This document shows positions 2,541 to 30,074 of a stretch of DNA of 41,361 nt, piece after piece. Source of the stretch: a virus. A program made the position numbers and the translations under genes. Within the stretch, counting starts at the first letter, position 1. The number at the start of each line of letters is the position of its first letter. The notes beneath the pieces were generated by a model, which saw only the letters and a program-made list of their open reading frames with translations, ran no database searches and was not told the DNA's origin. The stretch is from positions 1-41,361 of IMG/VR virus record IMGVR_UViG_3300037308_000077; one strand, written 5' to 3'.

Positions 2541-2806
2541 GGCGCGGTGAGAGTGCAATTGATTTTCTAAGAGAATATCAACTCCAAAAGTTCGCAGAAC
2601 GAGAATACAAAGGCGAATGGAAGCATGTCACAATCGGAAAACTCTTGACACTAATGCGCCGAGAGTTTTCAGAGTTGACCGATGCCGTTGGTTTCGGTGA
2701 CCACAACGAAGCGATCCGAGAGTGCGCCGACATTGCCAATTATGCCGCGATCATCGCCGATGTGCTCAGGTTAAAAAGTGAGAACCTTGAGCGAAGCCAA
2801 GACTGA
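2537..2806 (+). CDS. Putative MazG-like nucleotide pyrophosphohydrolase (small all-alpha NTP-PPase)
   Basis: 'REFSELTDAV...EAIRECADIANYAAIIADVL' follows the E-x2-E ... E-x2-D helical pattern of MazG-like proteins. This is a motif-level call only. Confidence 0.4.
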   Translation: MRRGESAIDFLREYQLQKFAEREYKGEWKHVTIGKLLTLMRREFSELTDAVGFGDHNEAIRECADIANYAAIIADVLRLKSENLERSQD

Positions 2807-3373
2807 CATGTAGTCGCCTTTGGCCGGCGAATTGCCTTCCAAGAGTTTGACAAGTTGTTCAAGCGCGTTCATTCCTGCAACAATTTGCGCCTTAGTCATC
2901 GACGCGCCGAACATGATCGTTTTGTCACTCATGCCAGCAAGCGCCGCTGAAAGCTCGGTCGCAACATACATTGCCAACATTTCCTTCGCCTGTTTGCGAA
3001 CTTCAAGCAAGTTCGAGCCGAGCGAATAAAGCACGTCACCAATTGACTCAACTTCGTTTGTGAGCACCGCTTCACGCGCCGAGTCGCCAAGCGTAAGGGT
3101 TCGCGCAGTTGTGATGTATGTCGCGTTGGAAACGTCTTGGTTCCCGAAGAACTTAACGATTGCTTCCGCAAGTGCAATGCCTGAAACGAACTCTGACTTT
3201 TTCAGCTTAGACGATACCGTGACGGGATCGGCATCGGCCAGGCTTGCGATATCAGTATTGGCACTTGTTCCCCAATAACGTTCATAAGATTCACTTGCAA
3301 GGTTCAATATGTAACAAAGGCCAGGTATCAAAACCTTCGTGCTTTTTTCGATTGCTTCCGTTGTCTTATTCAT
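2771..3373 (-). CDS. Hypothetical alpha-helical protein, last gene of the late arm
   Basis: Internal ATG at 3373 ('MNKTTEAIEK') preceded by AAGGA. The 82 upstream codons of the 282-aa track ORF overlap the neighbouring gene. Confidence 0.55.
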   Translation of the reverse strand: MNKTTEAIEKSTKVLIPGLCYILNLASESYERYWGTSANTDIASLADADPVTVSSKLKKSEFVSGIALAEAIVKFFGNQDVSNATYITTARTLTLGDSAREAVLTNEVESIGDVLYSLGSNLLEVRKQAKEMLAMYVATELSAALAGMSDKTIMFGASMTKAQIVAGMNALEQLVKLLEGNSPAKGDYMSVLASLKVLTF

Positions 3374-3377
3374 TTTC

Positions 3378-3827
3378 TCAATCCTTTTGTGCGCTGATTG
3401 TGAATATTGGCCGAGAACAAGATCCGGCGGTGACTTGCGCTGAAAGATTCCCAAGCGATGCAACGGGAATGTTGAGGCCAGTCTTTGCGTTCGCTGATTG
3501 TCCGGCGATCTGCAATGTTTCAACTGCAACGCCGTTAATAAATAGCGTGAACGTTGCCGTTGCGTTTGATTGAACGCCAACGGAAATTGCCTTAATTGTG
3601 CTAGCTTCGGCAACGACAAAAGGCGTTATGTTGCTGGCAACGTTTGCAAAGAAAGACAACCAGCGACCCGATGAAGCCGTGCCATCATGCGCGCAAAGAG
3701 TCACCCAACGCGCCTTGCCTTCGGCCTCATATCTTGCCTCTATAATGGCATCCCGAACGTTGTCAGAATCAAAATCAGGCGCCTCGAAAGGCACGCCTTG
3801 AGCAACCGCCGGTGAGGTGATCTTCAT
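3378..3827 (-). CDS. Hypothetical beta-rich protein
   Basis: Start 'MKITSPAVAQG' at 3827, coupled by an ATGA overlap to the stop of the upstream gene (3824). Confidence 0.55.
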   Translation of the reverse strand: MKITSPAVAQGVPFEAPDFDSDNVRDAIIEARYEAEGKARWVTLCAHDGTASSGRWLSFFANVASNITPFVVAEASTIKAISVGVQSNATATFTLFINGVAVETLQIAGQSANAKTGLNIPVASLGNLSAQVTAGSCSRPIFTISAQKD

Positions 3828-15110: not shown

Positions 15111-15676
15111 TATCTCAACCCCGTCCATTTGCTCATGATTGACGCGCCATCATCAGAAACCTTTGAAGCTGGCGCGCCGCCCGTAACCTTTCCCAAAGAT
15201 GACTTGCTTTGAAAAGATGAAGCCGAAACCTGAATTGATATTGTCGCACTTTCGACGATTCGAACCTCTTGGAAAACAGCGGTAAACCGAAGCGCGCGGC
15301 CGGTGTCGGCCGAACGCGGCACCGTCAAAGTTTTCAGGATCATGTTGTTGTATTGCTTGAGGCCAGTGATCACGTCAACCGGTTCACGATCCTCTTGCAA
15401 TGCAAGCAATTCTTCATAAGTTTTCCGGCTTCGGTTGTCGTCAAAAAGCGAAGTGAGGCCAGCCAAAAACTTCACCGGCGTATCTGAAACCAAGCCTTCA
15501 ACCGTAAGCATCACCGGCTTGAAGAACACATGATCGGAAACATTGGCGCCGGCCTCAACCGGGTTTTCGGTGATATCGCAATTTGTCTCATGAGTTTCAG
15601 CAACGGCAACATCGACTTCGATTTGAGCAATCGAAAGTTTCTTTTTTGTGCCATAGACAAGGCTCAACAATCCCAT
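15110..15676 (-). CDS. Putative distal-tail (Dit-like) protein
   Basis: It lies directly downstream of the tape measure. 'IAQIEVDVAV..H....DITENPVEAGANVSDHVF.KP..LTVEGLVS'. Confidence 0.45.
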   Translation of the reverse strand: MGLLSLVYGTKKKLSIAQIEVDVAVAETHETNCDITENPVEAGANVSDHVFFKPVMLTVEGLVSDTPVKFLAGLTSLFDDNRSRKTYEELLALQEDREPVDVITGLKQYNNMILKTLTVPRSADTGRALRFTAVFQEVRIVESATISIQVSASSFQSKSSLGKVTGGAPASKVSDDGASIMSKWTGLR

Positions 15677-15684
15677 GGTTCACC

Positions 15685-18225
15685 TCAATAACTTATGTTT
15701 CCTTCGGTTGCTCTTGCCGCTGGCCGCACCATGCGATCAAATTCTTCGCGTGCCGCACGCCTCACCGCTTCGCCAACCGCATTGGCGTCACTGCCAGGCG
15801 GCACCGTCACGTTGATTGTCGCATCGAATTGGTTCGAAACCGAACGCGAACTTGTGCCGGCCTCGGCTTGTGCCGACATTCGATCAGCCATGACGGTTGG
15901 CGAAGCGGCGGCGGCGCTCATTGGCGCGGCCATTGCAAGACCAGCGGCGGCAACCGCCGGCGCAACCGCCTTGGGAAGTGTCGGCGTTTCGAAGTCGAGG
16001 CCGACCTTGGCGGCCAGGCTTCCAAGTGTTCCCTTGAGCCAACCGAACATGGAAGTGAACCCTTCAACGATTGGCTGGATCAACCCGTCACGCAAGCGCG
16101 CGCCGGCATCGGCGGCCATGCTGGCAACCGAATCCCAAAGGCCGCCGAACCAAGCAACCAATCCCGACCAGGCCGATTTGAGAAGATCCAGCGCGGCCGC
16201 ACCGGCGGCAACAACCGAATCCCAAGCGGCCTTGGAGCCAAGCTTGATCTCAACCCAAACGTTGTTGAGGCCCTGCAAAAAGGCGTTCCACAAGGCACCG
16301 AAGGTTGCGGTGATGTCATCCCAATATTTGACAACCTGAACCACGGCAAAGCCAACCGCCGCAATCGCGGCAATGACTGCCAGGATCGGCGCCAGCGCAA
16401 CAACCCAAGCCGCCGCCGCTTTGGCGCTCATGGCCAGGGTTGCGATTGCAATCTTTGCCATGCTGGCAACCCAAGCCGCCGAAGCTTTCACCGCCGAGGC
16501 AATGGCCGCCGCCGCCATTTTGACGTTAGCGGCAACCCAAAGTGCCGCCTGTTTTGTCCATGCCGCGCCGGAAATGACGGCACTCTTGACGGCCGAGGCG
16601 GCGGCCTTGAGCCATGCGCCGGAAGCCAAAACGCCAGCCTTGATCTGCGCGGCGGCATACATCGCGGCGCGCTTCCCGGCTTCAAGCATTGCGGCCGCGC
16701 CTGCGCGTGCGGAAGCGGCAACGTCACTGATTGAGCCGACCCAACGGGAAGCGGCAAGAACCCCTCGGCCAGCGGCGGCGCTCCAGGCGATGGCGGTTTT
16801 GCCGGCGGCGGCAACCATAGAAACGGAAGCTTTCACCGCCGAGGCGATGATTGAACCGGAAGCAATCGCAAACCTGGCCGCCATCGATGCCGCACCGAAG
16901 GCAACCTTTGCGAACCCGGCAACCCAAGGCCCAACAACCTTGCCAACAAAGTAAGCCGTCACGGCACCGAGGCCGGCGGTTATGCCGGTGAACCAAGAGT
17001 CAAACTCAGTTTCAGTGAGGCCGAGCATATCCATGATCCGGCGCTTCACTTTGCCAAGCCAATCAACCACGGCCTGGAAGATCTTTTCCTTGTTGCGAAC
17101 GAGAAAACCGAGAACCGAAGGCCGGCCGTCGATGAACGCAAGGAAGTCTTCAACGATTAAGAAAGCCGCCGCGATTGCGGCACCAATTAAAATTGGCCCA
17201 AGCAACGCGCGCTTCCAGGCAAAGAGTGCCGCCTTGCCAATTAAAAGAAAGCCTTTCACAACGGCGGCAAGCGCCATGCCAAGCTTTCCAAGAATAAACA
17301 AGCCGGCAACCGCCGCCAATCCCTTCAACACGCCAACGATACCGCCAAGGCTTTTTGTCAGGCGATCCGTTGTCTCAATCATGGCCTTCAGCACAAGCCA
17401 AACTGACTTGGCAACACGCAAAAACCAGCTCAGAAATTTTGTTGTAACCTCTATGAACTGTTGTATTCTTGTCTTCAAAAGATCGCGATTGGCAAGCATC
17501 CATTTTCGGATCTCGGTGACGATCTCGGTGATTGGCGGAATGAGGCCCATACCGATAGATCGGCCGAGGCCGAACACGGTTTCAGTCAGTCGCGTGATCT
17601 CATCGTTGAAGGCAAGCGATTGCTCAATTGCCTTGTCATCCATGATCGCGCCAAAGGCCGCCGCTTCATCACCGAGGCCCTGGATCGCCGCTGAACCTTG
17701 GTTCAACATGCGAATCATTCGCGTGCCGGATTCGCCAAACAACCGCATGGCAAGCGCCGACTTGTTTGTGCCTTGCGGCATCTTTGCAAACTTGTCGGAA
17801 ACCTCAAGCATCAACCTATCGGCGGTTTTCAAATTGCCGCTTGAATCCATGACGGAAACGCCAAGCGCGCCGAAAGCTTCCGTTGCCTCTTTGGATCCCG
17901 TCTTTGCCATGAACGCGGCGCGCGATATTTGCCGAAGGGAAACGCCGAGGATCTCGGCGCTGGCGCCATTCAGGTTTGCGGCATGAGTCAACCGTTGCAA
18001 GCTTTCGGTTGTGATGCCAACCGATTGGGCAAGGTTGTGCGTTCTCTCACCGTAAGCGGCCGTTGTTTTTGCCAACCCAAAAAGAGCGGCGGCACCGGCG
18101 GCGGCGGCGGTGCCAACGGCAAAGAGCGCCGTCTTGATATCCGAGATCCCTTGTTCCATGCGGCGCAAGGGTTCATCATCAACCTCGAATCCAAACTTGA
18201 CCACTAATTCGCGAACGGTTGCCAT
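15685..18225 (-). CDS. Tail tape measure protein
   Basis: ~846 aa. The N-terminal TMP core is 'AYGERTHNLAQSVGITTESLQRLTHAANLNGASAE...FGALGVSVMDSSGNLK...LFGESG', followed by a long Ala-rich helical/TM-like middle. GAGGTG precedes ATG 18225 (a GTG at 18231 is also possible). Confidence 0.9.
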   Translation of the reverse strand: MATVRELVVKFGFEVDDEPLRRMEQGISDIKTALFAVGTAAAAGAAALFGLAKTTAAYGERTHNLAQSVGITTESLQRLTHAANLNGASAEILGVSLRQISRAAFMAKTGSKEATEAFGALGVSVMDSSGNLKTADRLMLEVSDKFAKMPQGTNKSALAMRLFGESGTRMIRMLNQGSAAIQGLGDEAAAFGAIMDDKAIEQSLAFNDEITRLTETVFGLGRSIGMGLIPPITEIVTEIRKWMLANRDLLKTRIQQFIEVTTKFLSWFLRVAKSVWLVLKAMIETTDRLTKSLGGIVGVLKGLAAVAGLFILGKLGMALAAVVKGFLLIGKAALFAWKRALLGPILIGAAIAAAFLIVEDFLAFIDGRPSVLGFLVRNKEKIFQAVVDWLGKVKRRIMDMLGLTETEFDSWFTGITAGLGAVTAYFVGKVVGPWVAGFAKVAFGAASMAARFAIASGSIIASAVKASVSMVAAAGKTAIAWSAAAGRGVLAASRWVGSISDVAASARAGAAAMLEAGKRAAMYAAAQIKAGVLASGAWLKAAASAVKSAVISGAAWTKQAALWVAANVKMAAAAIASAVKASAAWVASMAKIAIATLAMSAKAAAAWVVALAPILAVIAAIAAVGFAVVQVVKYWDDITATFGALWNAFLQGLNNVWVEIKLGSKAAWDSVVAAGAAALDLLKSAWSGLVAWFGGLWDSVASMAADAGARLRDGLIQPIVEGFTSMFGWLKGTLGSLAAKVGLDFETPTLPKAVAPAVAAAGLAMAAPMSAAAASPTVMADRMSAQAEAGTSSRSVSNQFDATINVTVPPGSDANAVGEAVRRAAREEFDRMVRPAARATEGNISY

Positions 18226-18227
18226 TG

Positions 18228-18835
18228 TCACCTCAACTTGGCCTTCGCCGCCGCGACTTTGTTCGCGTAAGCTTCGGCCTCCTCTTTCAGATCCAACGCC
18301 TCATTGGCATCGGCCAGATCGTCAATGCTCCAATGGGTTTCGATCTCTTGGAGCGAACCGAGGCCGGCCAACACAACCCGCCACACTTCCCATTGTATGT
18401 TGATCCGGCCGGGTTGGAAGCCGGAAGCATCACCGCTTACTTTCGCAATGCGGCGATTGCGCCTAAAAAATCAGAAAAATTAACCTCCAAGACAAAAGCC
18501 AAAACTTTGAACAAGGTGCCAATGTTCCCGGAAAAGTCGAGATCAAAATTGATCGGCTTTCCGTCTTTGGTTGTTGTCTCCAAGAGTTCCTTCACGGTGC
18601 GCTCAAAAGTCACTTCATCGCAAGATTCGAAAAGCGCCTTGATGGCCGAACCGAAAGCTTCGGCCGTGATGTTCGCGTTCGCAACATCACCGAGCGCGGC
18701 GCCGCCAGTGAGTGCGCCGAAAGCTGGCCCAATCATCTTGCCGAGGCGGTGAAAAATCTTGAGTGCCTTTGTTGCCGAGAACTGCGAAACGGCAAAAACC
18801 GAATCATCGATGATCTTCTCTTGTGTGTGTTTCAT
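18228..18835 (-). CDS. Tail assembly chaperone gpGT-like product made by -1 programmed frameshift at 18464-18470
   Basis: T TTT TTA is in the correct X XXY YYZ register. The -1 frame is open for 78 codons ('RRNRRIAKVSGDAS...ETHWSIDDLADANEALDLKEEAEAYANKVAAAKAKLR'). Its TGA (18228-18230) abuts the tape measure start. Confidence 0.65.
18437..18835 (-). CDS. Tail assembly chaperone (gpG-like, 0-frame product)
   Basis: It sits between the tube and tape measure genes. Start 'MKHTQEK' has an AAAGGAAA RBS. The track start at 18889 lies inside the terminator hairpin. Confidence 0.7.
   Translation of the reverse strand: MKHTQEKIIDDSVFAVSQFSATKALKIFHRLGKMIGPAFGALTGGAALGDVANANITAEAFGSAIKALFESCDEVTFERTVKELLETTTKDGKPINFDLDFSGNIGTLFKVLAFVLEVNFSDFLGAIAALRK
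18464..18470 (-). promoter_or_regulatory. Slippery heptanucleotide U UUU UUA (-1 PRF site)
   Basis: Forward taaaaaa at 18464-18470. Codons 123-124 of the chaperone are TTT TTA, preceded by a codon ending in T. Confidence 0.65.
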
Positions 18836-23440: not shown

Positions 23441-24361
23441 TTAGATGCCTTCAGCGATATTGATAGCCATTGGATAATAGATCAACACACCGCCGATTCG
23501 TTGATGGCAAGGCACCACATACTCAAGGCCGCGCTCTTGTTCCGGGAACTGTTCAAAGTCTTGCGGAATTTCGAGAGTCAGCACATCGGGATCCTTGCGG
23601 TATGCGATCATGGCATCGCTTCCACCGTAACCGGCACCCTTCAACTCGTTCACCCAATCAACGTTCTTGATGTAACCATTGTTGTCAAGAAAGTATTTCA
23701 GGATCGTGGTGTCGCTGGTTGCGCTTCGCGGTGTTGAATGGATCAAGTTGTATTGAGCCAAAGGAAGCAACAAGGTGTCGGGAATTTCAACGCCGTGCGT
23801 GCTTTCAACGATGAAGTTCGCCGCCGCGTTCAAGTCGGCGATGATCTCATCAGGCGTTTTCTGAATGAAGGTTGTGAACCCGGAAACGCCAGAAGGTACG
23901 GCGGTGCGCGTCACGTTAGGGTTGGACAACAGGCCGCCGAGGCCCGAAGCCGCGTCACCGTTGAAGGCAATGGCGTTTTCTTTCTGCATGATGGCGCGCT
24001 TGGCCGCGTTCGCCTTGCGTTGCTGCAAAGGCTTGCCGGCCATTTGTGCGTTGCGGATCTCTTGCAGGTTGTAACCGAAAGAGGCGCCAAGGCTTTTGAC
24101 CCGTGCGACAAATTCACGGCCAACGATGTCGGCGCGCGGAAGGTCATCAGCGTAAGACGCGATGATCTTGGCAATGCCAACCTGATCGAATTGCTGGTAC
24201 ACGATTGATTCGGCGCCAGGCCCGGCTTCAAAAGAAACCGGAATGAGTCGGCGAACCTTCAGTTCTGGATATTTGATGTCATAAGTCTTAGACTTAACCG
24301 CCTCAAGTTCGCGAGAAAAGAACGCCGATTGTGCGGCATCAAGCTTTGTGTGAACAATCAT
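23441..24361 (-). CDS. Major capsid protein (HK97 fold, DUF2184-type)
   Basis: 'LDAAQSAFFSRELEAVKSKTYDIKYPELKVRRLIPV...ESIVYQQFDQVGIAKIIASYADDLPRADI'. Synteny with a DUF2213-type scaffold gene supports the call. Confidence 0.8.
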   Translation of the reverse strand: MIVHTKLDAAQSAFFSRELEAVKSKTYDIKYPELKVRRLIPVSFEAGPGAESIVYQQFDQVGIAKIIASYADDLPRADIVGREFVARVKSLGASFGYNLQEIRNAQMAGKPLQQRKANAAKRAIMQKENAIAFNGDAASGLGGLLSNPNVTRTAVPSGVSGFTTFIQKTPDEIIADLNAAANFIVESTHGVEIPDTLLLPLAQYNLIHSTPRSATSDTTILKYFLDNNGYIKNVDWVNELKGAGYGGSDAMIAYRKDPDVLTLEIPQDFEQFPEQERGLEYVVPCHQRIGGVLIYYPMAINIAEGI

Positions 24362-24374
24362 ACCTTCACCCCTT

Positions 24375-25154
24375 TCAAATGTTGATGTTCACAAGTGCAA
24401 GCTCACCGGCCGCCGCACTTGATAAGAACTTACTTCCCGACAATGCGATTGTGTCGGATCCATCGGCACTCTTTCGGAAGGCGCCAGCGACTTCAGGCGA
24501 AACCGCAACGGCGCGCACATAAACAGGATCCTCGGCAACAACCGCCTCTTCAACCTTCACCCAGATAACACCGCGCCGAAGAACGTTCACGGCCGATTGT
24601 GCCGCGTAACCTTCCAAGCCGTTGTTGATATTGTCAGCATGAGAGAAAACGGAAACGCCGATCACCTTGTCGCTGGTTGCGGCCAAAAGGCGGCACTCTT
24701 GATCCTGCGTTCCTTGAGCAACGGCCAGGCCGAACCCAACAACGGGATGTGCAACGAAGGCGGTGTCATTCACAAGCGTAAGCTGCGCGTCGGATTCGGC
24801 GGCGGTGAAGTCTTGGCCGGCAAGCCGTGCCTCAACATAAAATTCATCGGCATCTTTCGCGTAAGCGAAGCAATACAGCTTTGCCGCGCTGGCGTTGATT
24901 GCGGCAATGAGGCCGTCACGCTTCGAAGTCACGGTGCCAGCGGCGCCTTCATTGAAGCTGATCGCAGTGACAACGCCAGTTGGCGAAGTCAAAGAAAGTG
25001 CATAAGCAACATCGGTTGCGGCCGACACCGTGAAGGTATACCGCTTTTTGATCGAATTGCCGTTGATGTAAGAACGCACAAAAGAATCGCTGATATCACC
25101 GAGAAGACCGGCAACCGCGATTGCCATTGCGGCCGAGTAATTCAATTGACTCAT
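24375..25154 (-). CDS. Capsid-associated protein (decoration/second head protein by position)
   Basis: 259-aa ORF between the scaffold and major capsid genes. Confidence 0.45.
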   Translation of the reverse strand: MSQLNYSAAMAIAVAGLLGDISDSFVRSYINGNSIKKRYTFTVSAATDVAYALSLTSPTGVVTAISFNEGAAGTVTSKRDGLIAAINASAAKLYCFAYAKDADEFYVEARLAGQDFTAAESDAQLTLVNDTAFVAHPVVGFGLAVAQGTQDQECRLLAATSDKVIGVSVFSHADNINNGLEGYAAQSAVNVLRRGVIWVKVEEAVVAEDPVYVRAVAVSPEVAGAFRKSADGSDTIALSGSKFLSSAAAGELALVNINI

Positions 25155-25167
25155 GGCTTAACTCCTT

Positions 25168-26295
25168 TCACTTGTTAGTTTTCCATGCTTCCGCATCGGC
25201 CTTCATGGATCGCTCACGCGCCGTTGCCGCTGAAGAATTATCACACCGAGAATTGTTGATTGCCGACTTCAGGCCGTCATTGGTTGAAGGCTTCACCGAG
25301 GTGATGCCAGCAAAGAGGCCGTCAATGAAGGCATCGGTTGCGCCGTCAAGCTTGACTTCTGGAAGCCGAACCTTGATCACCTCAACCTTGATCTCTTTGT
25401 CTGAAAGAGAGTCGAATTTGACATCTGGCGCAAGCGGCTTGACCAGTTCGAGTAAGGCAAGTCTCGCCATTGCGGCCTCATGGATCCTTTTGGAATCCAT
25501 TTTTGTTTCTTCAAGTTCGCCTTTCATCGAATCGACTTCAGCAACCTTTGCATCAACCTCGGCTTTCAGGCCGGTGTTTTCGCCTTTCAATCTTTCAACT
25601 TCTGACTGAAGCGTGCTCAGTTGTGCGCTGATCTCTTCGATGCTCATGGCGTCTTTCCTGAACTTCGAAGTCACCGCAAGCGCGGCGGCTTCGCTCATTT
25701 CCAATTCAATTTCATCGATCCTGACCTTAGACATTGGAGATCTCCCATCTTGGCTTTCAACTTGAACGGCGGCGCCGCCATCCATTCTAACCCTGACTTC
25801 TGGCCCTGCGCGGCCTTGAGAAACAACCGCAAGGTGATTGTACCGAACGTTGCGTTGAATTGCGTCATATGGCTGATTGTCATACATCCCGGCGGTTTCA
25901 TCAAGATCGCAAGTGTAACCACAACTTGTTTCAAGCTTTTCTCGGTTCTCAAGCTTCGCGATCAAGTCTTGCGCCGTGACTGTGATGTTGCACTTCACAA
26001 AGTGCTCAACCCGTTCAACCGTTTCGCCAGTGAAACCCTTGGCGTACATTTCGGTATTGAGTGCGTTCAAAAGCACCGGCGGGTGTTCGTCGGTGACGGT
26101 GACACCGCGAAGGGTTGCCAAGCTTTCCTCGGCAAAGACTTCATCGGCTGGCCTCAATTCCCGGCGCACGGTGCCATCGGCGTTGGCATACAGGAAAACG
26201 CCAACCCTGGTTGCGAAGCAATCGGCCTTGAGATAACCCTGCGCGGTTTTCTCTGGCCGTCTCATTTCGCCGAAGTCAATCCGTTCAACTCTCAT
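25168..26295 (-). CDS. Scaffold/prohead protein (DUF2213-like) with a C-terminal coiled coil
   Basis: 'GYLKADCFATRVGVFLY.NADGTVRRELRPADEVF...SLATLRGVTVTDEHPP', followed by a coiled-coil C-terminal half. Confidence 0.65.
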   Translation of the reverse strand: MRVERIDFGEMRRPEKTAQGYLKADCFATRVGVFLYANADGTVRRELRPADEVFAEESLATLRGVTVTDEHPPVLLNALNTEMYAKGFTGETVERVEHFVKCNITVTAQDLIAKLENREKLETSCGYTCDLDETAGMYDNQPYDAIQRNVRYNHLAVVSQGRAGPEVRVRMDGGAAVQVESQDGRSPMSKVRIDEIELEMSEAAALAVTSKFRKDAMSIEEISAQLSTLQSEVERLKGENTGLKAEVDAKVAEVDSMKGELEETKMDSKRIHEAAMARLALLELVKPLAPDVKFDSLSDKEIKVEVIKVRLPEVKLDGATDAFIDGLFAGITSVKPSTNDGLKSAINNSRCDNSSAATARERSMKADAEAWKTNK

Positions 26296-26340
26296 TCAAC
26301 ACCTCTTGATGCCTTCTCATACCATATTCAAGCAATCACT

Positions 26341-28272
26341 TCACTTTTTCAACAAGGCCGCCAATTCGGGGTTGTCGGTGACGCCTTCGTCGAAGACGGG
26401 TTGCGCGATGCAACGACAATTGCTAACAATCACATCATCGGCAATGTACCAGCCTTTTCTAGTTTCGAGGTTATAGACGTGGCCAGAAAATTCACTGAAA
26501 GTAACATTTTGTACGCGATCAGACTTATAAAAAGCGGCGCGTTGCTCAAGGACATCGCTCAATCGCTTGGAGTCAACGCCGACAATCTCGGCAAGAAACT
26601 GAGAGAAAGAGGGATCGACACTTCCGTCAACCGATTCAATCGGGATTGTTCGCCGATCAACTTGTGTCATGATTCTGTCATATCGGCCTACATTTTCGGA
26701 GAAAGTGAGTTGTCTATAAGTAAGCGACTCGGTGTTAGTCGCACGCCGATCCGCCGAATCATTCGGAAACACGGGATCGGTGTCAGAGGCATAAGCAAGG
26801 CCAACTTTCTCAGAATGGCTCGGCTTTCTTCTGAAGAAAGGAAGGCGCTCACAAAGCAAGCCAATGTTGCGACAAAAGGCACCAAGAGAAGAGAAGAAAC
26901 CAATATCAAAAGAGCGAATGTGAAAGCCAGAAGAATCGGCATTGGGGAAAAAGAGTTGATTCAATTTTTCCATGACGCCGGCCTTGAAACCGATCCTCAA
27001 ACCCCGATTAACACATACAATATTGATATCACTGTCGGCACCGTCGCCGTGGAAGTGTTCTTTTGTGACTTTCGCCGAATAAGAATGAAACACTTCAGAA
27101 AGAAATCTGAAAAAATACAAGAATGTGGTTTTAACCTTGTCAATATTCTCTTCAGCGATATCGACGCCATTATCAACCAAAAGGATCAAATCATCGAACT
27201 CGTTAAGCTCTTGAGCCTTGACCCAACCGCGCCGCGTCAAGAATGGATGATTAGGTGTACATCTAATCGTTTTACCCGATTGCGTAACAACAAGGGCCAG
27301 TTTTCCGTCATACCATCGGCGAAAACCTTTGATTGTATCAAGACAAAGATCAATTGAAACATCGCCGGGAAAGCACTGAAAGTCTTCGCCGGGATGGCCG
27401 GTGTCGGCTGGCGGATCGTCCCAACTGAAGATCTTGCCGTTCTTGGAGGCGTGACTTTCCCGAACCCGATCATCACCGGAAGTCAACCAGCGGTATTTTG
27501 TCACGCCGAGCGCGGTTTGTCTGGTTTGGTTCAGTTGGCCGTTGTATTTTGAGATCTGATCCCGTGCGATCAAGCGCGATCTGGCCTCGGCGTTATGCAC
27601 TCGGTTCTTGAGTGCGCCGGCTTCGAACTGATTCTTGTATTCTTCGGCGAACTCTGAAGTCAGCTTTTTGGCATATTCTTTGTTGTAAACACCAGCTTGA
27701 ATGTGTTCATAAGTGTCACGTTGAAGCTTCGCAAAATAATCATCAGAAATTGAACGGATCAGCGAAGTGTTAGTGTCAACAAATTGCCGCATAACCGGTT
27801 CAAGGTATGGCTCGGCAGTGATTGGCTTCACTCCAAGAACCTTGCCAAACTGATCGGCAATTTGTTCCTTGTTAAAAGCTTGACCTTTTGCGGCATATTT
27901 TGCCGCCAGCGCGTTGACTTCTCGATCAGTGAGTTCGCGCGCAAAGGCGACTTTCATCGCCTCAAAAACCCGGTCAATTTCGCGTGAATAATTGGCGTCA
28001 CGCCGTACCGCCTGGCCGTCAAAGGTTTTGGTTGGCGCCAGTTCTTCGCGTGCGGTGTCGAGGATCGCCGGAAGCAAAGGCACAAGGTTCTTTTCCACCA
28101 GCTTGGCCAGCGGTATCACAACCTGGTCGGTCAAGTCTTTGAGGTATTGGCGCTCAAGCTGGATCGGCGGCCGAGGTTTTGGCGGCCTCGGAAGCCGCAA
28201 CCGTTTGGCGCGCGGCGAAAGGCTTCGCGCCTTCATCATCAAAACGGTTTCCACAATCGTCTTCATGGTCAT
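26341..28272 (-). CDS. Head morphogenesis protein (Mu F / SPP1 gp7 family) precursor containing a 319-aa intein
   Basis: 'YRWLTSGDDRVRESHASKNGKIFSWDDPPADTGHPGEDFQ' is followed by the intein and then 'CRCIAQPVF' (the conserved ...PG...CRC motif of the family). Confidence 0.85.
   Translation of the reverse strand: MTMKTIVETVLMMKARSLSPRAKRLRLPRPPKPRPPIQLERQYLKDLTDQVVIPLAKLVEKNLVPLLPAILDTAREELAPTKTFDGQAVRRDANYSREIDRVFEAMKVAFARELTDREVNALAAKYAAKGQAFNKEQIADQFGKVLGVKPITAEPYLEPVMRQFVDTNTSLIRSISDDYFAKLQRDTYEHIQAGVYNKEYAKKLTSEFAEEYKNQFEAGALKNRVHNAEARSRLIARDQISKYNGQLNQTRQTALGVTKYRWLTSGDDRVRESHASKNGKIFSWDDPPADTGHPGEDFQCFPGDVSIDLCLDTIKGFRRWYDGKLALVVTQSGKTIRCTPNHPFLTRRGWVKAQELNEFDDLILLVDNGVDIAEENIDKVKTTFLYFFRFLSEVFHSYSAKVTKEHFHGDGADSDINIVCVNRGLRIGFKAGVMEKLNQLFFPNADSSGFHIRSFDIGFFSSLGAFCRNIGLLCERLPFFRRKPSHSEKVGLAYASDTDPVFPNDSADRRATNTESLTYRQLTFSENVGRYDRIMTQVDRRTIPIESVDGSVDPSFSQFLAEIVGVDSKRLSDVLEQRAAFYKSDRVQNVTFSEFSGHVYNLETRKGWYIADDVIVSNCRCIAQPVFDEGVTDNPELAALLKK
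26419..27375 (-). mobile_element. Intein (Hint domain; Cys1 ... Ser-Asn / +1 Cys) inserted before the CRC motif of the Mu-F-like protein
   Basis: Block A 'CFPGDVSI', block B 'IRCTPNHPFLTRRGW', blocks F/G 'HVYNLETRKGWYIADDVIVSN|C'. Removing it restores 'GEDFQ-CRCIAQP'. Confidence 0.8.
26479..27357 (+). CDS. Antisense homing-endonuclease-like ORF nested inside the intein (2 HTH repeats + NUMOD3-like basic stretch + Vsr/DUF559-like PD-(D/E)XK pattern)
   Basis: GAGG at 26467-26470, then 8 nt, then GTG at 26479. HTH repeats are 'LKDIAQSLGVNADNLGKKLRERGI' and 'LSISKRLGVSRTPIRRIIRKHGI'. The nuclease-like part is 'EKELIQFFHDAGLETDPQTPINTYNIDITVGTVAVEV...ECGFNLVNILFSDID'. The start is uncertain because there is no in-frame ATG until 26818. 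Confidence 0.55.
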   Translation: MARKFTESNILYAIRLIKSGALLKDIAQSLGVNADNLGKKLRERGIDTSVNRFNRDCSPINLCHDSVISAYIFGESELSISKRLGVSRTPIRRIIRKHGIGVRGISKANFLRMARLSSEERKALTKQANVATKGTKRREETNIKRANVKARRIGIGEKELIQFFHDAGLETDPQTPINTYNIDITVGTVAVEVFFCDFRRIRMKHFRKKSEKIQECGFNLVNILFSDIDAIINQKDQIIELVKLLSLDPTAPRQEWMIRCTSNRFTRLRNNKGQFSVIPSAKTFDCIKTKIN

Positions 28273-30074
28273 CCCTTCAGCGTGCCGATCACCGCCTTGA
28301 TGCCTTCGCGAAGTTCAATCGTCTTCAAAGAACCCTCGACAAATTCTTCAGGTTCTCGTTGCCTAACGCGCCAGCTTTCGGCCGTCTCATCGATGCCGGG
28401 GTTGGTTTCAACCTTGAAGCCGTGCGCGGTGACCCAAGCGGCAACGGCCGAGCGATCCCTGAAGTTCTCTTTGCTCATGATTAAGCTTTGCACTTCCGTT
28501 GCGTCACCGTGCTTTGCGTGAACGAGATCCCGAAGAAAGAACACCGAGTCAAGGGTTGGCACGGGTTCCGGCGCAATCGTAACCTTCGGTTCGAATCCGG
28601 CGCCAACCGTTCCCATCACTGATTCCGCTTTTTCTTTTGTCATTGCAAAGGCGGCCTGAATTATGGCCAAGCCGGATTCACGCGGCAAAGCGCCAGCGGC
28701 AACCGAAGTGATCACTTCCACGAGGCTTGTCACTTGCGCGCCGTTCAATGCTGTTTCCTGTATTGGCGCATCGATGGCGCCAGCGGAAACAGGTTCGGAT
28801 CCGAACTCGGTCACTTCCCGAATGTTGGTGTTCAATTGGATCTCGGAGTCTTCGCCGCCAAAGCGCGCCTTGGCGACTTCATCAGGATCCAGCACGCCGT
28901 TGCTGATATAGATCGCGTCGGCCTCAGCTTGCGTCTTGTAAGTGCTGGCGGCCTCTTGTTCGTCAAGACTCCAAAGCGGCCAATATTTGATTGTCACCTT
29001 GTCCATGTCAACAGGCACGCCGTCTTTCGCAAGCGTGATGTATTCGATCAGCTTCATTTGCTTAGGCTTGAGATATGTTTGCTGTTCATGAGATATCAGG
29101 TTATAAAAATCCTCTTGCTCACTTCGGCCGCTTGTGTTTCCTTGCGAACCTTCACCGAGCAAGATTGTGTGCGGCATATCGGAAGCGGCAACCAGGCGTT
29201 CGGAAATGGCCTTCAGGATCTCAGGCAATCCCGTAAGGTTAGTTGTTTGCCTTGTAAATTCTTCATCGTCTTGAATCACAAGCGCGCGAACAACCGAGCG
29301 GGTTGCATCCAAAAGCTGAAGGCGTTTCATTAGAAGGTCATCGTCACCGGAAGCGATCAAGTCGGAAAGGTTTTTCAGCTTGAACACCGCCTGCGCGAAG
29401 TCGGCCATAACGTTCGCCGCCGAATCGTGCGCGGTGTTGAAGTTTGAAAGCGGGTTGTACATCGCCGAAAGAACCGAATCTCCCCAATAATTATTGGCGA
29501 CAAAACTGTTCTCTGGAAGCTCAATTCCATCGAAGCGAATCACGCGCGAAGCGTGAACATAAGTCGAGTTTTGATCGCTGTTTGCTGATATCTGATACCG
29601 CATTGGCAAGCCATAATCAGGCTTGCTCAAGTCTTGCTGGATCTCATGTGCAATCAACTGCCAACGATCCAGCACGGCCAGCCATTCGATTGACCGGATC
29701 GCCTTTGTGTTCACCGGTTCGGAAGGTTCTTGACCGTCTTCGATACCGAGGATCACGCCTGCGCCGCCGTGAAGCCTGGCCAAAGTGATGGCCTTGCGAA
29801 AGGCTTCATCGGCGTTCAGGCGCCGAAGGTATTGCAGGATCGCTTGCCCGGCTTCCGGCTTGTCTTCAACCTTGACATCGTAACCTTCTCGAAACATTTC
29901 CTTCGGCACGCGCGCGACAACCTTCCGGGCAACGTCATCGGCGCGGAATAGATCTTCCAGTTCTTGTCGCTGCAACAACTTCGGCACCGGCGCCGAAGAC
30001 ATGCGCTTGTCGCGACTTGCCAGGCCGAGGCCAGTAAGAACGTTTGTCCAACCGTCAACTCGTTTGATCATCAC
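28269..30074 (-). CDS. Portal protein (DUF1073-type)
   Basis: 601 aa between TerL and the Mu-F-like gene. The N-terminus is 'DGWTNVLTGLGLASRDKR...'. ATG at 30071 or GTG at 30074 could be the start. Confidence 0.8.
   Translation of the reverse strand: MMIKRVDGWTNVLTGLGLASRDKRMSSAPVPKLLQRQELEDLFRADDVARKVVARVPKEMFREGYDVKVEDKPEAGQAILQYLRRLNADEAFRKAITLARLHGGAGVILGIEDGQEPSEPVNTKAIRSIEWLAVLDRWQLIAHEIQQDLSKPDYGLPMRYQISANSDQNSTYVHASRVIRFDGIELPENSFVANNYWGDSVLSAMYNPLSNFNTAHDSAANVMADFAQAVFKLKNLSDLIASGDDDLLMKRLQLLDATRSVVRALVIQDDEEFTRQTTNLTGLPEILKAISERLVAASDMPHTILLGEGSQGNTSGRSEQEDFYNLISHEQQTYLKPKQMKLIEYITLAKDGVPVDMDKVTIKYWPLWSLDEQEAASTYKTQAEADAIYISNGVLDPDEVAKARFGGEDSEIQLNTNIREVTEFGSEPVSAGAIDAPIQETALNGAQVTSLVEVITSVAAGALPRESGLAIIQAAFAMTKEKAESVMGTVGAGFEPKVTIAPEPVPTLDSVFFLRDLVHAKHGDATEVQSLIMSKENFRDRSAVAAWVTAHGFKVETNPGIDETAESWRVRQREPEEFVEGSLKTIELREGIKAVIGTLKG

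Follow-up and report, generated by a model that had tools for sequence, protein, structure and literature searches.

The 41,361-nucleotide viral sequence IMGVR_UViG_3300037308_000077 of IMG/VR (positions 1 to 41,361, hereafter the window) carries on its minus strand a MuF/SPP1-gp7-like head-morphogenesis gene interrupted by an intein, and the plus strand of this intein holds a second open reading frame (ORF), hereafter the plus ORF (coordinates in Table 1). It is highly probable that both form one mobile composite, in which a contiguous class-1 intein is combined with a homing-endonuclease gene (HEG) encoded antisense to it, in frame -1. The antisense HEG is supported by frame-specific selection in relatives, by frame-specific conservation in an alignment that includes the window, by free-standing homologues of the plus ORF, by structure predictions for both frames, and by profile and fold matches of the plus product to I-Bth0305I and DUF559 proteins. 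The arrangement had been proposed in an earlier sequence-only reading of the window, whose coordinates for the precursor ORF (26341-28272), the intein (26419-27375), the ribosome-binding GAGG (26467-26470), the GTG start (26479) and the stop (27355-27357) were all confirmed, placing the plus ORF wholly inside the intein and in an identical codon register. The peptides quoted there were all present, and none of the sequence-based results that it had named as refutations, where the analyses were run, refuted the antisense gene.

Selection on the two frames was studied in eight Guernseyvirinae inteins alignable without indels, for which the mean pairwise pN/pS was obtained in each frame. The minus frame gave values of 0.24 in the N-extein, 0.12 in the C-extein and 0.07 in the Hint C-lobe (1.14, 1.67 and 1.5, respectively, in the plus frame), whereas in the intein middle it was the plus frame that gave a low value, 0.20, against 1.01 in the minus frame. 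The Hint N-lobe was below 1 in both frames (minus 0.47, plus 0.69). Likewise, the mean pairwise differences in the intein middle were 40.6 at the third position of the plus-frame codons, vs 6.9 and 16.1 at the other positions. The intein centre of these relatives is under purifying selection in the plus frame. In a deeper alignment that includes the window, conservation was stronger in the minus frame over intein codons 1-60 and 281-319 and in the plus frame over codons 61-280, a result independent of the frame used for aligning, and the BLOSUM score of the minus frame along the spacer was around 0.

Both frames begin at positions congruent to 1 mod 3 and their codon register is thus identical, residue i of the plus product being encoded opposite intein codon 300-i. 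On the plus strand the block-F His299 codon (CAC) reads as the GTG start, the TGA stop lies opposite intein codon 7, and the ribosome-binding site falls, as had been claimed, in the block-F codons. A Shine-Dalgarno sequence of the TCGAGGTT type is found 5' of the start in most homologues. The coding sequence of the plus ORF overlaps around 65 codons at the Hint N-lobe and around 17 at block F. When the codons were shuffled while preserving the plus protein, the Hint score of the minus frame was 37.7 ± 8.2 bits, vs 99 bits for the real sequence. When the minus protein was preserved instead, the C-terminus of the plus product scored 29.9 ± 7.9 bits, vs 63.1 bits for the real one (0 of 500 shuffles), and against a model made from free-standing proteins only the scores were 3.2 ± 4.2 and 18.2, respectively (4 of 500). 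In this window, constraint on both strands extends along around 65 codons at Hint blocks A/B. The frame under selection therefore changes along the intein: it is the plus frame in the middle and the minus frame at block F/G, and the approximately 65 codons that overlap the Hint N-lobe are selected in both. For the mid-intein minus frame, freedom from stop codons is, in the best explanation, the sole requirement. The sequence-only reading had assigned to the sense read-through the role of a linker and nothing else, which agrees with the centre, an unstructured spacer, but not with the two ends of the overlap, where the plus ORF and the Hint blocks (A/B and F) are truly dual-coding. Judged from sequence comparison and modelling, the plus ORF is a genuine gene maintained by selection.

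Homologues of the plus ORF were detected by tblastn in at least 118 GenBank phage records, with 25-33% identity, 30 of them with at least 80% query coverage, from phages of Proteobacteria and Actinobacteria hosts, and direct inspection of around 20 of the matched and related loci confirmed the antisense orientation and the common register. In the seven intein-bearing matches inspected (7/7), the homologue lies antisense to the coding sequence annotated as MuF or head protein, and the plus-frame score equalled or exceeded the minus-frame score in 9 of 10 loci, though the minus query contains the Hint blocks. The family profile gathered 1,633 representatives at E<=1e-30 (clusters at 50% identity). 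Both frames were open in the same register in the ten intein-bearing loci first examined (phages of Klebsiella, Edwardsiella, Aggregatibacter, Gordonia, E. coli, Vibrio and Salmonella, two metagenome contigs and the window), and the embedded loci examined later agree, in such a way that every one of the approximately 20 embedded homologues inspected, with GC contents of 0.42-0.64, had 0 stops in the minus frame. By contrast, three free-standing homologues had 9-13 stops in the corresponding antisense frame. One of these is found in Acinetobacter phage IME285, where the homologue (L008:455-1348, plus strand), with a closed antisense frame, is convergent and stop-to-stop with an intein-less MuF gene (L008:1345-2127, minus strand) whose product ends in ...PMCKCRAKLII; the same layout is repeated in two metagenome phage contigs (L011:4001-4894/4891-5655 and L012:3587-4528/4533-5291). 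The three genes are located around 55 nt from the CKC/CRC codons, the intein site in other phages. All three retain the C-terminal hairpin, and the C-terminus of the window's plus product matched those of free-standing proteins with E values of 7e-15 and 6e-8. A relic of the Hint N-lobe in the antisense of the free-standing homologues, which would indicate descent from embedded copies, was looked for and did not emerge above chance, as 46, 94 and 168 of 500 synonymous shuffles scored at least as high as the real sequences.

The structures of the two frames were predicted separately with AlphaFold2 (AF2). The model of the plus product, built with a 29-sequence alignment, had a mean predicted local distance difference test score (pLDDT) of 89.6 and shows, in order, two three-helix helix-turn-helix (HTH) units, long helices at residues 105-149, which correspond to the region labelled NUMOD3-like in the sequence-only reading, an alpha/beta core at around residues 153-247 and a C-terminal hairpin. 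The two tandem HTHs proposed earlier were thus recovered, at residues 7-43 and 64-97, and for the second one HTH_58, HTH_23 and HTH_7 were found in family members, together with profile matches to the Sleeping Beauty PAI and resolvase HTHs. Searches with the single sequence produced only sub-threshold HTH matches in Pfam and nothing in the PDB with phmmer, so that the nuclease could be assigned only with the family profile and the AF2 model. With hmmsearch, the family profile matched the catalytic domain of I-Bth0305I (PDB 3R3P, E 3.2e-6) and the DUF559-like protein 3HRL (E 1.6e-4), and Foldseek gave target-normalised TM-scores of 0.72 and 0.65 for these two structures. Pfam MTES_1575 was reached by 7 of 29 family members (best E 3.6e-8) and DUF559 by 2 of 29, and the matches in the viral structure library BFVD were proteins labelled 'DNA mismatch endonuclease', 'DUF559' and 'NUMOD3'. 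The family-invariant or near-invariant residues E157, Y180, D183, G187, A190 and E192 (alignments A1 and A2) are all intact in the window; D183 (27025-27) and E192 (27052-54) are invariant and E157 (26947-49) is invariant or nearly so, forming an E...D...E pattern that resembles those of DUF559 and MTES_1575. Profiles and model together support that the plus product is a predicted Vsr/DUF559-type PD-(D/E)XK nuclease with two N-terminal HTHs, as the earlier reading had it.

The minus-frame intein was modelled from 11 sequences, with a mean pLDDT of 52.9 and confidence only in the Hint lobes, and its Foldseek matches were inteins only, through the Hint part (mini-inteins at probability 1.00). 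The sole conserved minus-frame motif between the lobes is FHGDG, with F-H-G-D at codons 108-111 (27043-27054), just outside codons 123-281; as an in-frame nuclease motif it was rejected, as it is the antisense of the catalytic G.VAVE of the plus frame, with F-H-G-D opposite V-A-V-E. Regarding the splicing blocks, Cys1 is encoded at 27373-27375 (GCA/TGC), block B, TPNHP, at codons 40-44 (27244-27258), with the TxxH pattern present as T40-P-N-H43, and Asn319 at 26419-26421, after which the C-terminal sequence VSN is followed by the +1 Cys of the MuF 'CRC' motif (26416-26418). C1, T40, N42, H43, P44, H299 and N319 are invariant in the intein alignment A3. The excised intein scored 36.0 bits against PF14890 (cutoff 35.8), and the mini-intein matches in the PDB, among them the NrdJ-1 and DnaB inteins, reach across block B.

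The host gene was identified by the match of the precursor ORF to Phage_Mu_F (PF04233, E 6e-18), accompanied by a match to Intein_splicing (PF14890), and PHROG 15127 'head protein' (phrog_15127) spans the whole insert (E 1e-47). Excision of the insert in silico yields a MuF protein of 324 amino acids whose junction (residues 299/300) aligns unbroken with many intein-less MuF genes, and the predicted empty site of this phage is GACACCGGCCATCCCGGCGAAGACTTTCAG joined to TGTCGTTGCATCGCGCAACCCGTCTTCGAC. The insertion point, before CRC/CRS, was identical in the 10 of 10 MuF loci whose junctions were read.

The mobility of the element was analyzed in relatives. Salmonella phage PK2 and E. coli phage Snoke have inteins 95.6% identical, with N-exteins of only 66.7% identity. 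The earlier proposal to look for intein-less and intein-bearing MuF alleles was answered in the Klebsiella Jedunavirus, where the intein is present in some phages and an empty, collinear site in others, the MuF proteins with and without intein being 73% identical and collinear through the PIN/CRC junction. These cases show a sporadic and, by its sequence signature, horizontally transferred distribution of the element in relatives. The Hint-plus-antisense-ORF unit was also found within a DnaC/IstB-like ATPase gene (L022:2709-4379, plus strand; antisense ORF 2766-3662, E 5e-64 to the family profile) and, in a shortened form, in a uracil-DNA glycosylase (UDG) gene (L024:3001-4191, plus strand; antisense ORF 3343-3825, 161 codons, E 1e-23), with the sense frame open in both, which suggests that the composite may switch exteins.

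A convergent ORF beside the intein-less MuF gene of Klebsiella phage RCIP0080 was considered as a family member and rejected, as it is a HEG-like gene of the T5orf172/MUG113 type (GIY-YIG superfamily, E 2e-5). This gene (L025:2279-2998, minus strand) overlaps tail-to-tail the 3' end of the MuF gene (L025:1492-2289, plus strand), and the presence of a different HEG-like gene at this place makes the MuF 3' end look like a hotspot of selfish nuclease genes.

The following cycle is proposed for the composite. The late-operon mRNA would be translated through the insert into a 73-kDa MuF precursor, in which the Hint lobes (intein codons 1-66 and 283-319) would fold around a spacer of around 160-215 residues without a fold of its own, and the 36-kDa intein would be spliced out, joining ...GEDFQ to CRC... 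in a MuF protein of 36.8 kDa; this predicted splicing is based on the intact catalytic residues and on stop-codon avoidance. A separate plus-strand transcript, whose existence we infer, would be translated from the GTG at 26479, with GAGG as its Shine-Dalgarno sequence, into a basic protein of 292 amino acids. By analogy with I-Bth0305I, this 33-kDa product would cut the intein-less MuF alleles of co-infecting phages near the junction of the ...FQ and CRC... codons, and recombinational repair would copy the intein with its gene into the cut allele. The predicted cleavage and gene conversion are based on the horizontal-transfer signature in relatives.

An open frame antisense to a coding sequence could also be a shadow ORF kept open by codon bias, in which case the intein would have a degenerate in-frame endonuclease or a linker. 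The plus frame is open from 25621, for 578 codons and well past the intein, and antisense shadow ORFs of at least 150 amino acids are common in the window (e.g. 15583-16734 inside 15685-18231). The absence of TTA, CTA and TCA codons from both strands, stressed in the sequence-only reading, does hold, with 0 stops, but by itself it has little weight: from local codon usage, around 3.4 antisense stops would be expected from the Leu and Ser codons of the plus ORF (P of zero, 0.026) and around 4.5 in the reverse direction from the codons of the intein (P of zero, 0.009), so the open antisense frame in this window alone is only mildly improbable (P around 0.01-0.03). Stop avoidance becomes compelling by comparison, when the embedded loci are set against the free-standing homologues. 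Codon bias is in turn contradicted by the purifying selection on the plus frame of an intein middle that is neutral in the minus frame, by free-standing homologues whose antisense frame is closed, by the size of the family, by the confident nuclease fold and profile matches of one frame and the lack of a fold in the centre of the other, and by the AT skew, which becomes purine-rich on the plus strand precisely over the insert; that the homologue alignments could be artefacts of conservation in the minus frame is argued against by the shuffle tests and the free-standing genes. The shadow-ORF explanation is effectively refuted. It is also very improbable that the gene is functionally 'fractured', with MuF-N plus Hint-N and Hint-C plus MuF-C made separately and trans-spliced, and with a continuous minus frame that is incidental. 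In its favour, Vsr-like HEGs were first found between split-intein halves (PMC2677866) and the minus-frame centre is long and unstructured; however, none of the embedded homologues has a break in the minus frame, across their range of GC contents and a very deep divergence, while the free-standing ones contain 9-13 stops. Moreover, no restart signal for Hint-C was noticed, although no search was aimed at one, and both public annotation and PHROG 15127 treat the MuF-intein as one protein.

The remaining explanation is that the plus ORF of this phage is a decaying or domesticated relic, the intein being vertically inherited and still splicing, and the endonuclease silent, inactive or co-opted for other DNA binding. 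We consider this unlikely, although several observations favour it, and these, together with the modest stop statistics of the window and the points on catalytic residues given below, weigh against an active mobile composite. The promoter put forward in the sequence-only reading (TTGCGC-17-TAACAA) fell below the threshold of a consensus scan, which returned no sigma-70-like site on the plus strand 5' of 26479; when 14 homologues were scanned more loosely, some good sigma-70-like matches appeared (e.g. TTGACA-18-CATAAT ending at -28 in L006), with inconsistent positions (-10 element ending at -28 or around -48) and no common element. The start is GTG in the window vs ATG in the homologues, in which the block-F His codon is CAT. 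In addition, megablast of 24000-30000 against phages and plus-ORF scans of IMG/VR contigs and GTDB genomes gave no match, and as there is no close relative of the window in the collections searched that could show recent transfer, mobility and frame-specific dN/dS rest on relatives with 25-43% protein identity or on other clades. Several intein groups with VSR-like homing endonucleases (HENs) also look vertically inherited according to a preprint (bioRxiv 10.1101/2025.01.02.630785). Neither alignment A1 nor A2 has a conserved His or Asp after E192, and therefore the His/Asp of the EDxHD motif is not evident. In the intein, the penultimate residue 318 is Ser and not the His of block G (His, Ser or Arg in the homologous inteins), and an Asn takes the place of the Asp found in block F of many inteins; for these two reasons splicing competence is assumed. 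A penultimate residue other than His is a tolerated variation among inteins. Against a relic stand the full length of the ORF, with all the invariant residues of the family intact, the Shine-Dalgarno sequence and start at their conserved position, the C-terminal overlap with scores far above those of synonymous shuffles, and an AF2 model that is confident throughout. Furthermore, an unselected antisense ORF should gain stops, of which around 3-4 are expected from local codon usage.

Table 1. Positions in the window of the MuF gene, its intein and the antisense ORF.
Feature	Positions	Strand	Description
MuF/SPP1-gp7-like head-morphogenesis precursor ORF with intein	26341..28272	-	643 aa, around 73 kDa
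N-extein	27376..28272	-	299 codons, C-terminal end ...GHPGEDFQ
Contiguous class-1 intein, 319 codons	26419..27375	-	Cys1, block B TPNHP, block F GHVYNLE, terminal Asn319
Hint N-lobe, blocks A/B, intein codons 1-66	27178..27375	-	Confidently folded (pLDDT 67-90); antisense is the plus-ORF C-terminus
Minus-frame read-through of nuclease gene, intein codons 123-281	26533..27009	-	Unstructured, neutrally evolving, stop-free spacer; pLDDT 24-44
Hint C-lobe, blocks F/G, intein codons 283-319	26419..26529	-	pLDDT 65-90
C-extein	26341..26418	-	25 codons + stop; starts with +1 Cys of conserved MuF 'CRC' motif
Candidate promoter TTGCGC-17-TAACAA	26401..26429	+	Unsupported
Shine-Dalgarno GAGG	26467..26470	+	8 nt 5' of GTG; antisense of block-F Asn-Leu codons
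Antisense (plus) ORF, 292 codons + TGA	26479..27357	+	Basic (pI 10.2), 33 kDa; HTH-HTH-helical region-putative Vsr/DUF559-like nuclease
First HTH unit, residues 7-43	26497..26607	+	AF2 helices 7-18, 23-30, 34-43; weak HTH Pfam/PDB profile matches
Second HTH unit, residues 64-97	26668..26769	+	AF2 helices 64-72, 77-84, 88-97
Predicted Vsr/DUF559-like nuclease core, residues 153-247	26935..27219	+	Conserved acids E157, D183, E192
C-terminal beta-hairpin, residues 255-291	27241..27351	+	pLDDT 81-95; antisense to Hint blocks A/B; truly dual-coding

The MuF precursor ORF lies within a late morphogenesis operon on the minus strand, with a portal-like gene upstream (28269-30074, minus strand) and, downstream, a gene at 25168-26295 whose same-position counterpart in relatives matches Pa193_gp24. 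The 286 further open codons upstream of the plus ORF (25621-26478, plus strand), antisense to gene 25168-26295 and to the MuF C-extein, are a shadow ORF. Among GenBank phage portals, the best match of the portal was Synechococcus phage S-CBS4, with 32% identity, and the closest relatives of the element itself are in phages of Gammaproteobacteria and in metagenomes. As far as sequence can tell, the window is from a phage lineage unrelated to the actinophage members listed earlier by others (see below).

As for the origin of the element, we put forward, tentatively and with less than even confidence, that intein and nuclease gene co-evolved as one integrated dual-coding unit. Its free-standing relatives would then be either escapees from an intein or the ancestral state, and would represent intermediates by which inteins gain or lose their endonucleases. 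In that case, around 80 codons may encode functional segments of two proteins, one on each strand, with the Hint N-lobe paired with the nuclease hairpin and the block-F His-Val-Tyr-Asn-Leu with the start codon and the Shine-Dalgarno sequence, and the whole unit may move among MuF, DnaC-like ATPase and UDG exteins and between phages of Proteobacteria and Actinobacteria. If this were true, the free-standing relatives would make endonuclease gain and loss testable, and the relatives might include a protein segment born by overprinting on the Hint antisense.

Whatever its origin, the architecture is widespread well beyond actinophages, including Salmonella Jersey-like phages, Aaphi23 and Klebsiella Jedunavirus, and it provides one of the cleaner natural cases of long antisense dual coding, with a 292-codon overlap along which selection switches strand. 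With the free-standing relatives beside MuF genes that lack the intein, the 'splicing domain first, endonuclease later' model of intein evolution could be tested, and the stop-free, unstructured spacer of around 160 residues shows how the Hint domain tolerates arbitrary sequence, which bears on intein engineering. Inteins with an antisense HEG are systematically mis-annotated, since gene callers give either the MuF precursor or the antisense ORF and rarely both, and searches for in-frame domains make them resemble decaying inteins.

Public gene calls at these loci are indeed inconsistent (L013:4001-4846, L015:4001-4894 and L007:1908-2717), with the antisense ORF called in some of them and the MuF-intein ORF uncalled; both ORFs are annotated in Salmonella phage PK2. 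In several Salmonella phages the MuF-intein protein is labelled 'NAD+--asparagine ADP-ribosyltransferase', and in Escherichia phage Snoke the mat_peptide of the intein (L005:2193-2822) disagrees both with the note of its own record (Cys244-Cys516) and with the boundaries found in this analysis, around 2001-2816 in locus coordinates.

We compared the composite with known systems. The sequence-only reading took the arrangement to be undescribed, which is not the case. Gosselin, Arsenault and Gogarten (bioRxiv 10.1101/2025.01.02.630785, version 2025-10-20) report four non-canonical intein architectures in actinobacteriophages, one of which is an 'anti-sense VSR-like HEN' in full inteins, with minor capsid (MuF-like) inteins exclusively non-canonical. 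The supplement lists as 'minor capsid, MuF-like ... VSR -1 ORF' the inteins of Vivi2 gp14, Malisha gp5, Angelicage and Affeca gp15, and Fosterous gp12, and a structural match to Vsr (1CW0) and an HHpred match to 3R3P are described. With tblastn, the plus ORF matched these same Gordonia phages (Vivi2, Malisha, Angelicage, Affeca and Fosterous) with 26-28.5% identity over 89-97% of the query, Vivi2 giving E 9e-23 with 28.5% identity over 96%. As the listed loci are themselves matches of the plus ORF, the architecture had been reported before, and the window adds a homologous member from another phage lineage. Both have an unsplit intein, a VSR-like HEN ORF in frame -1, a MuF host protein (IPR006528 / PF04233), an in-frame centre without a fold and an antisense product matching Vsr and 3R3P. 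Unlike them, the window is from an unrelated phage, with at most 32% identity to GenBank portals, and its ORF overlaps Hint blocks A/B and F and is dual-coding. Frame-specific dN/dS, free-standing copies tail-to-tail with intein-less MuF, the start codon on the antisense of the block-F His, and the breadth of the family in Proteobacteria phages were not found by term searches of that preprint. The biology is remarkable, yet it will not surprise a specialist who knows this work.

Antisense HENs of the LAGLIDADG type in inteins were known before (Gorbalenya 1998; Gogarten et al. 2002, as cited in bioRxiv 10.1101/2025.01.02.630785). As described there, the Synechocystis DnaX intein resembles the window in having the HEN ORF on the opposite strand of a contiguous intein and differs from it in the LAGLIDADG nuclease and the exteins. 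In nuclease type the element resembles I-Bth0305I, of the 'EDxHD' Vsr-like homing endonucleases (Taylor et al. 2011, PMC3239194; PDB 3R3P), a phage-borne protein that also has two N-terminal HTH/NUMOD units followed by a Vsr-like nuclease (E 3e-6, target-normalised TM-score 0.72). However, I-Bth0305I is encoded on the sense strand, in a group I intron in recA, and the plus-ORF family has an E...D...E arrangement closer to DUF559/MTES_1575, without an evident EDxHD His/Asp, as well as an additional helical region and a C-terminal hairpin.

In the fractured genes of Dassa et al. (2009, PMC2677866), a free-standing Vsr-like HEG lies between the halves of a split intein. The window shares with them an intein-associated Vsr-like HEG without in-frame fusion to the splicing domain, but its intein is within one stop-free ORF of 643 codons, with no split and with the HEG overlapping it codon for codon. 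Overprinting is also known from the ShiLan domain, an out-of-frame 'hidden' HNH endonuclease in an insertion of a phage methylase (PMC11855218). As in the window, that HEN ORF is overprinted on an insertion kept stop-free in the frame of the host gene; unlike in the window, it is on the same strand, in frame +3, encodes an HNH nuclease and has no Hint splicing domain. Free-standing phage HEGs beside their target gene are known from the seg and mob genes of the T-even phages and from 'collaborative homing'. The homologues of IME285 and of the two metagenome contigs L011 and L012, placed stop-to-stop with intein-less MuF genes, resemble them, whereas the gene of the window is inside the intein.

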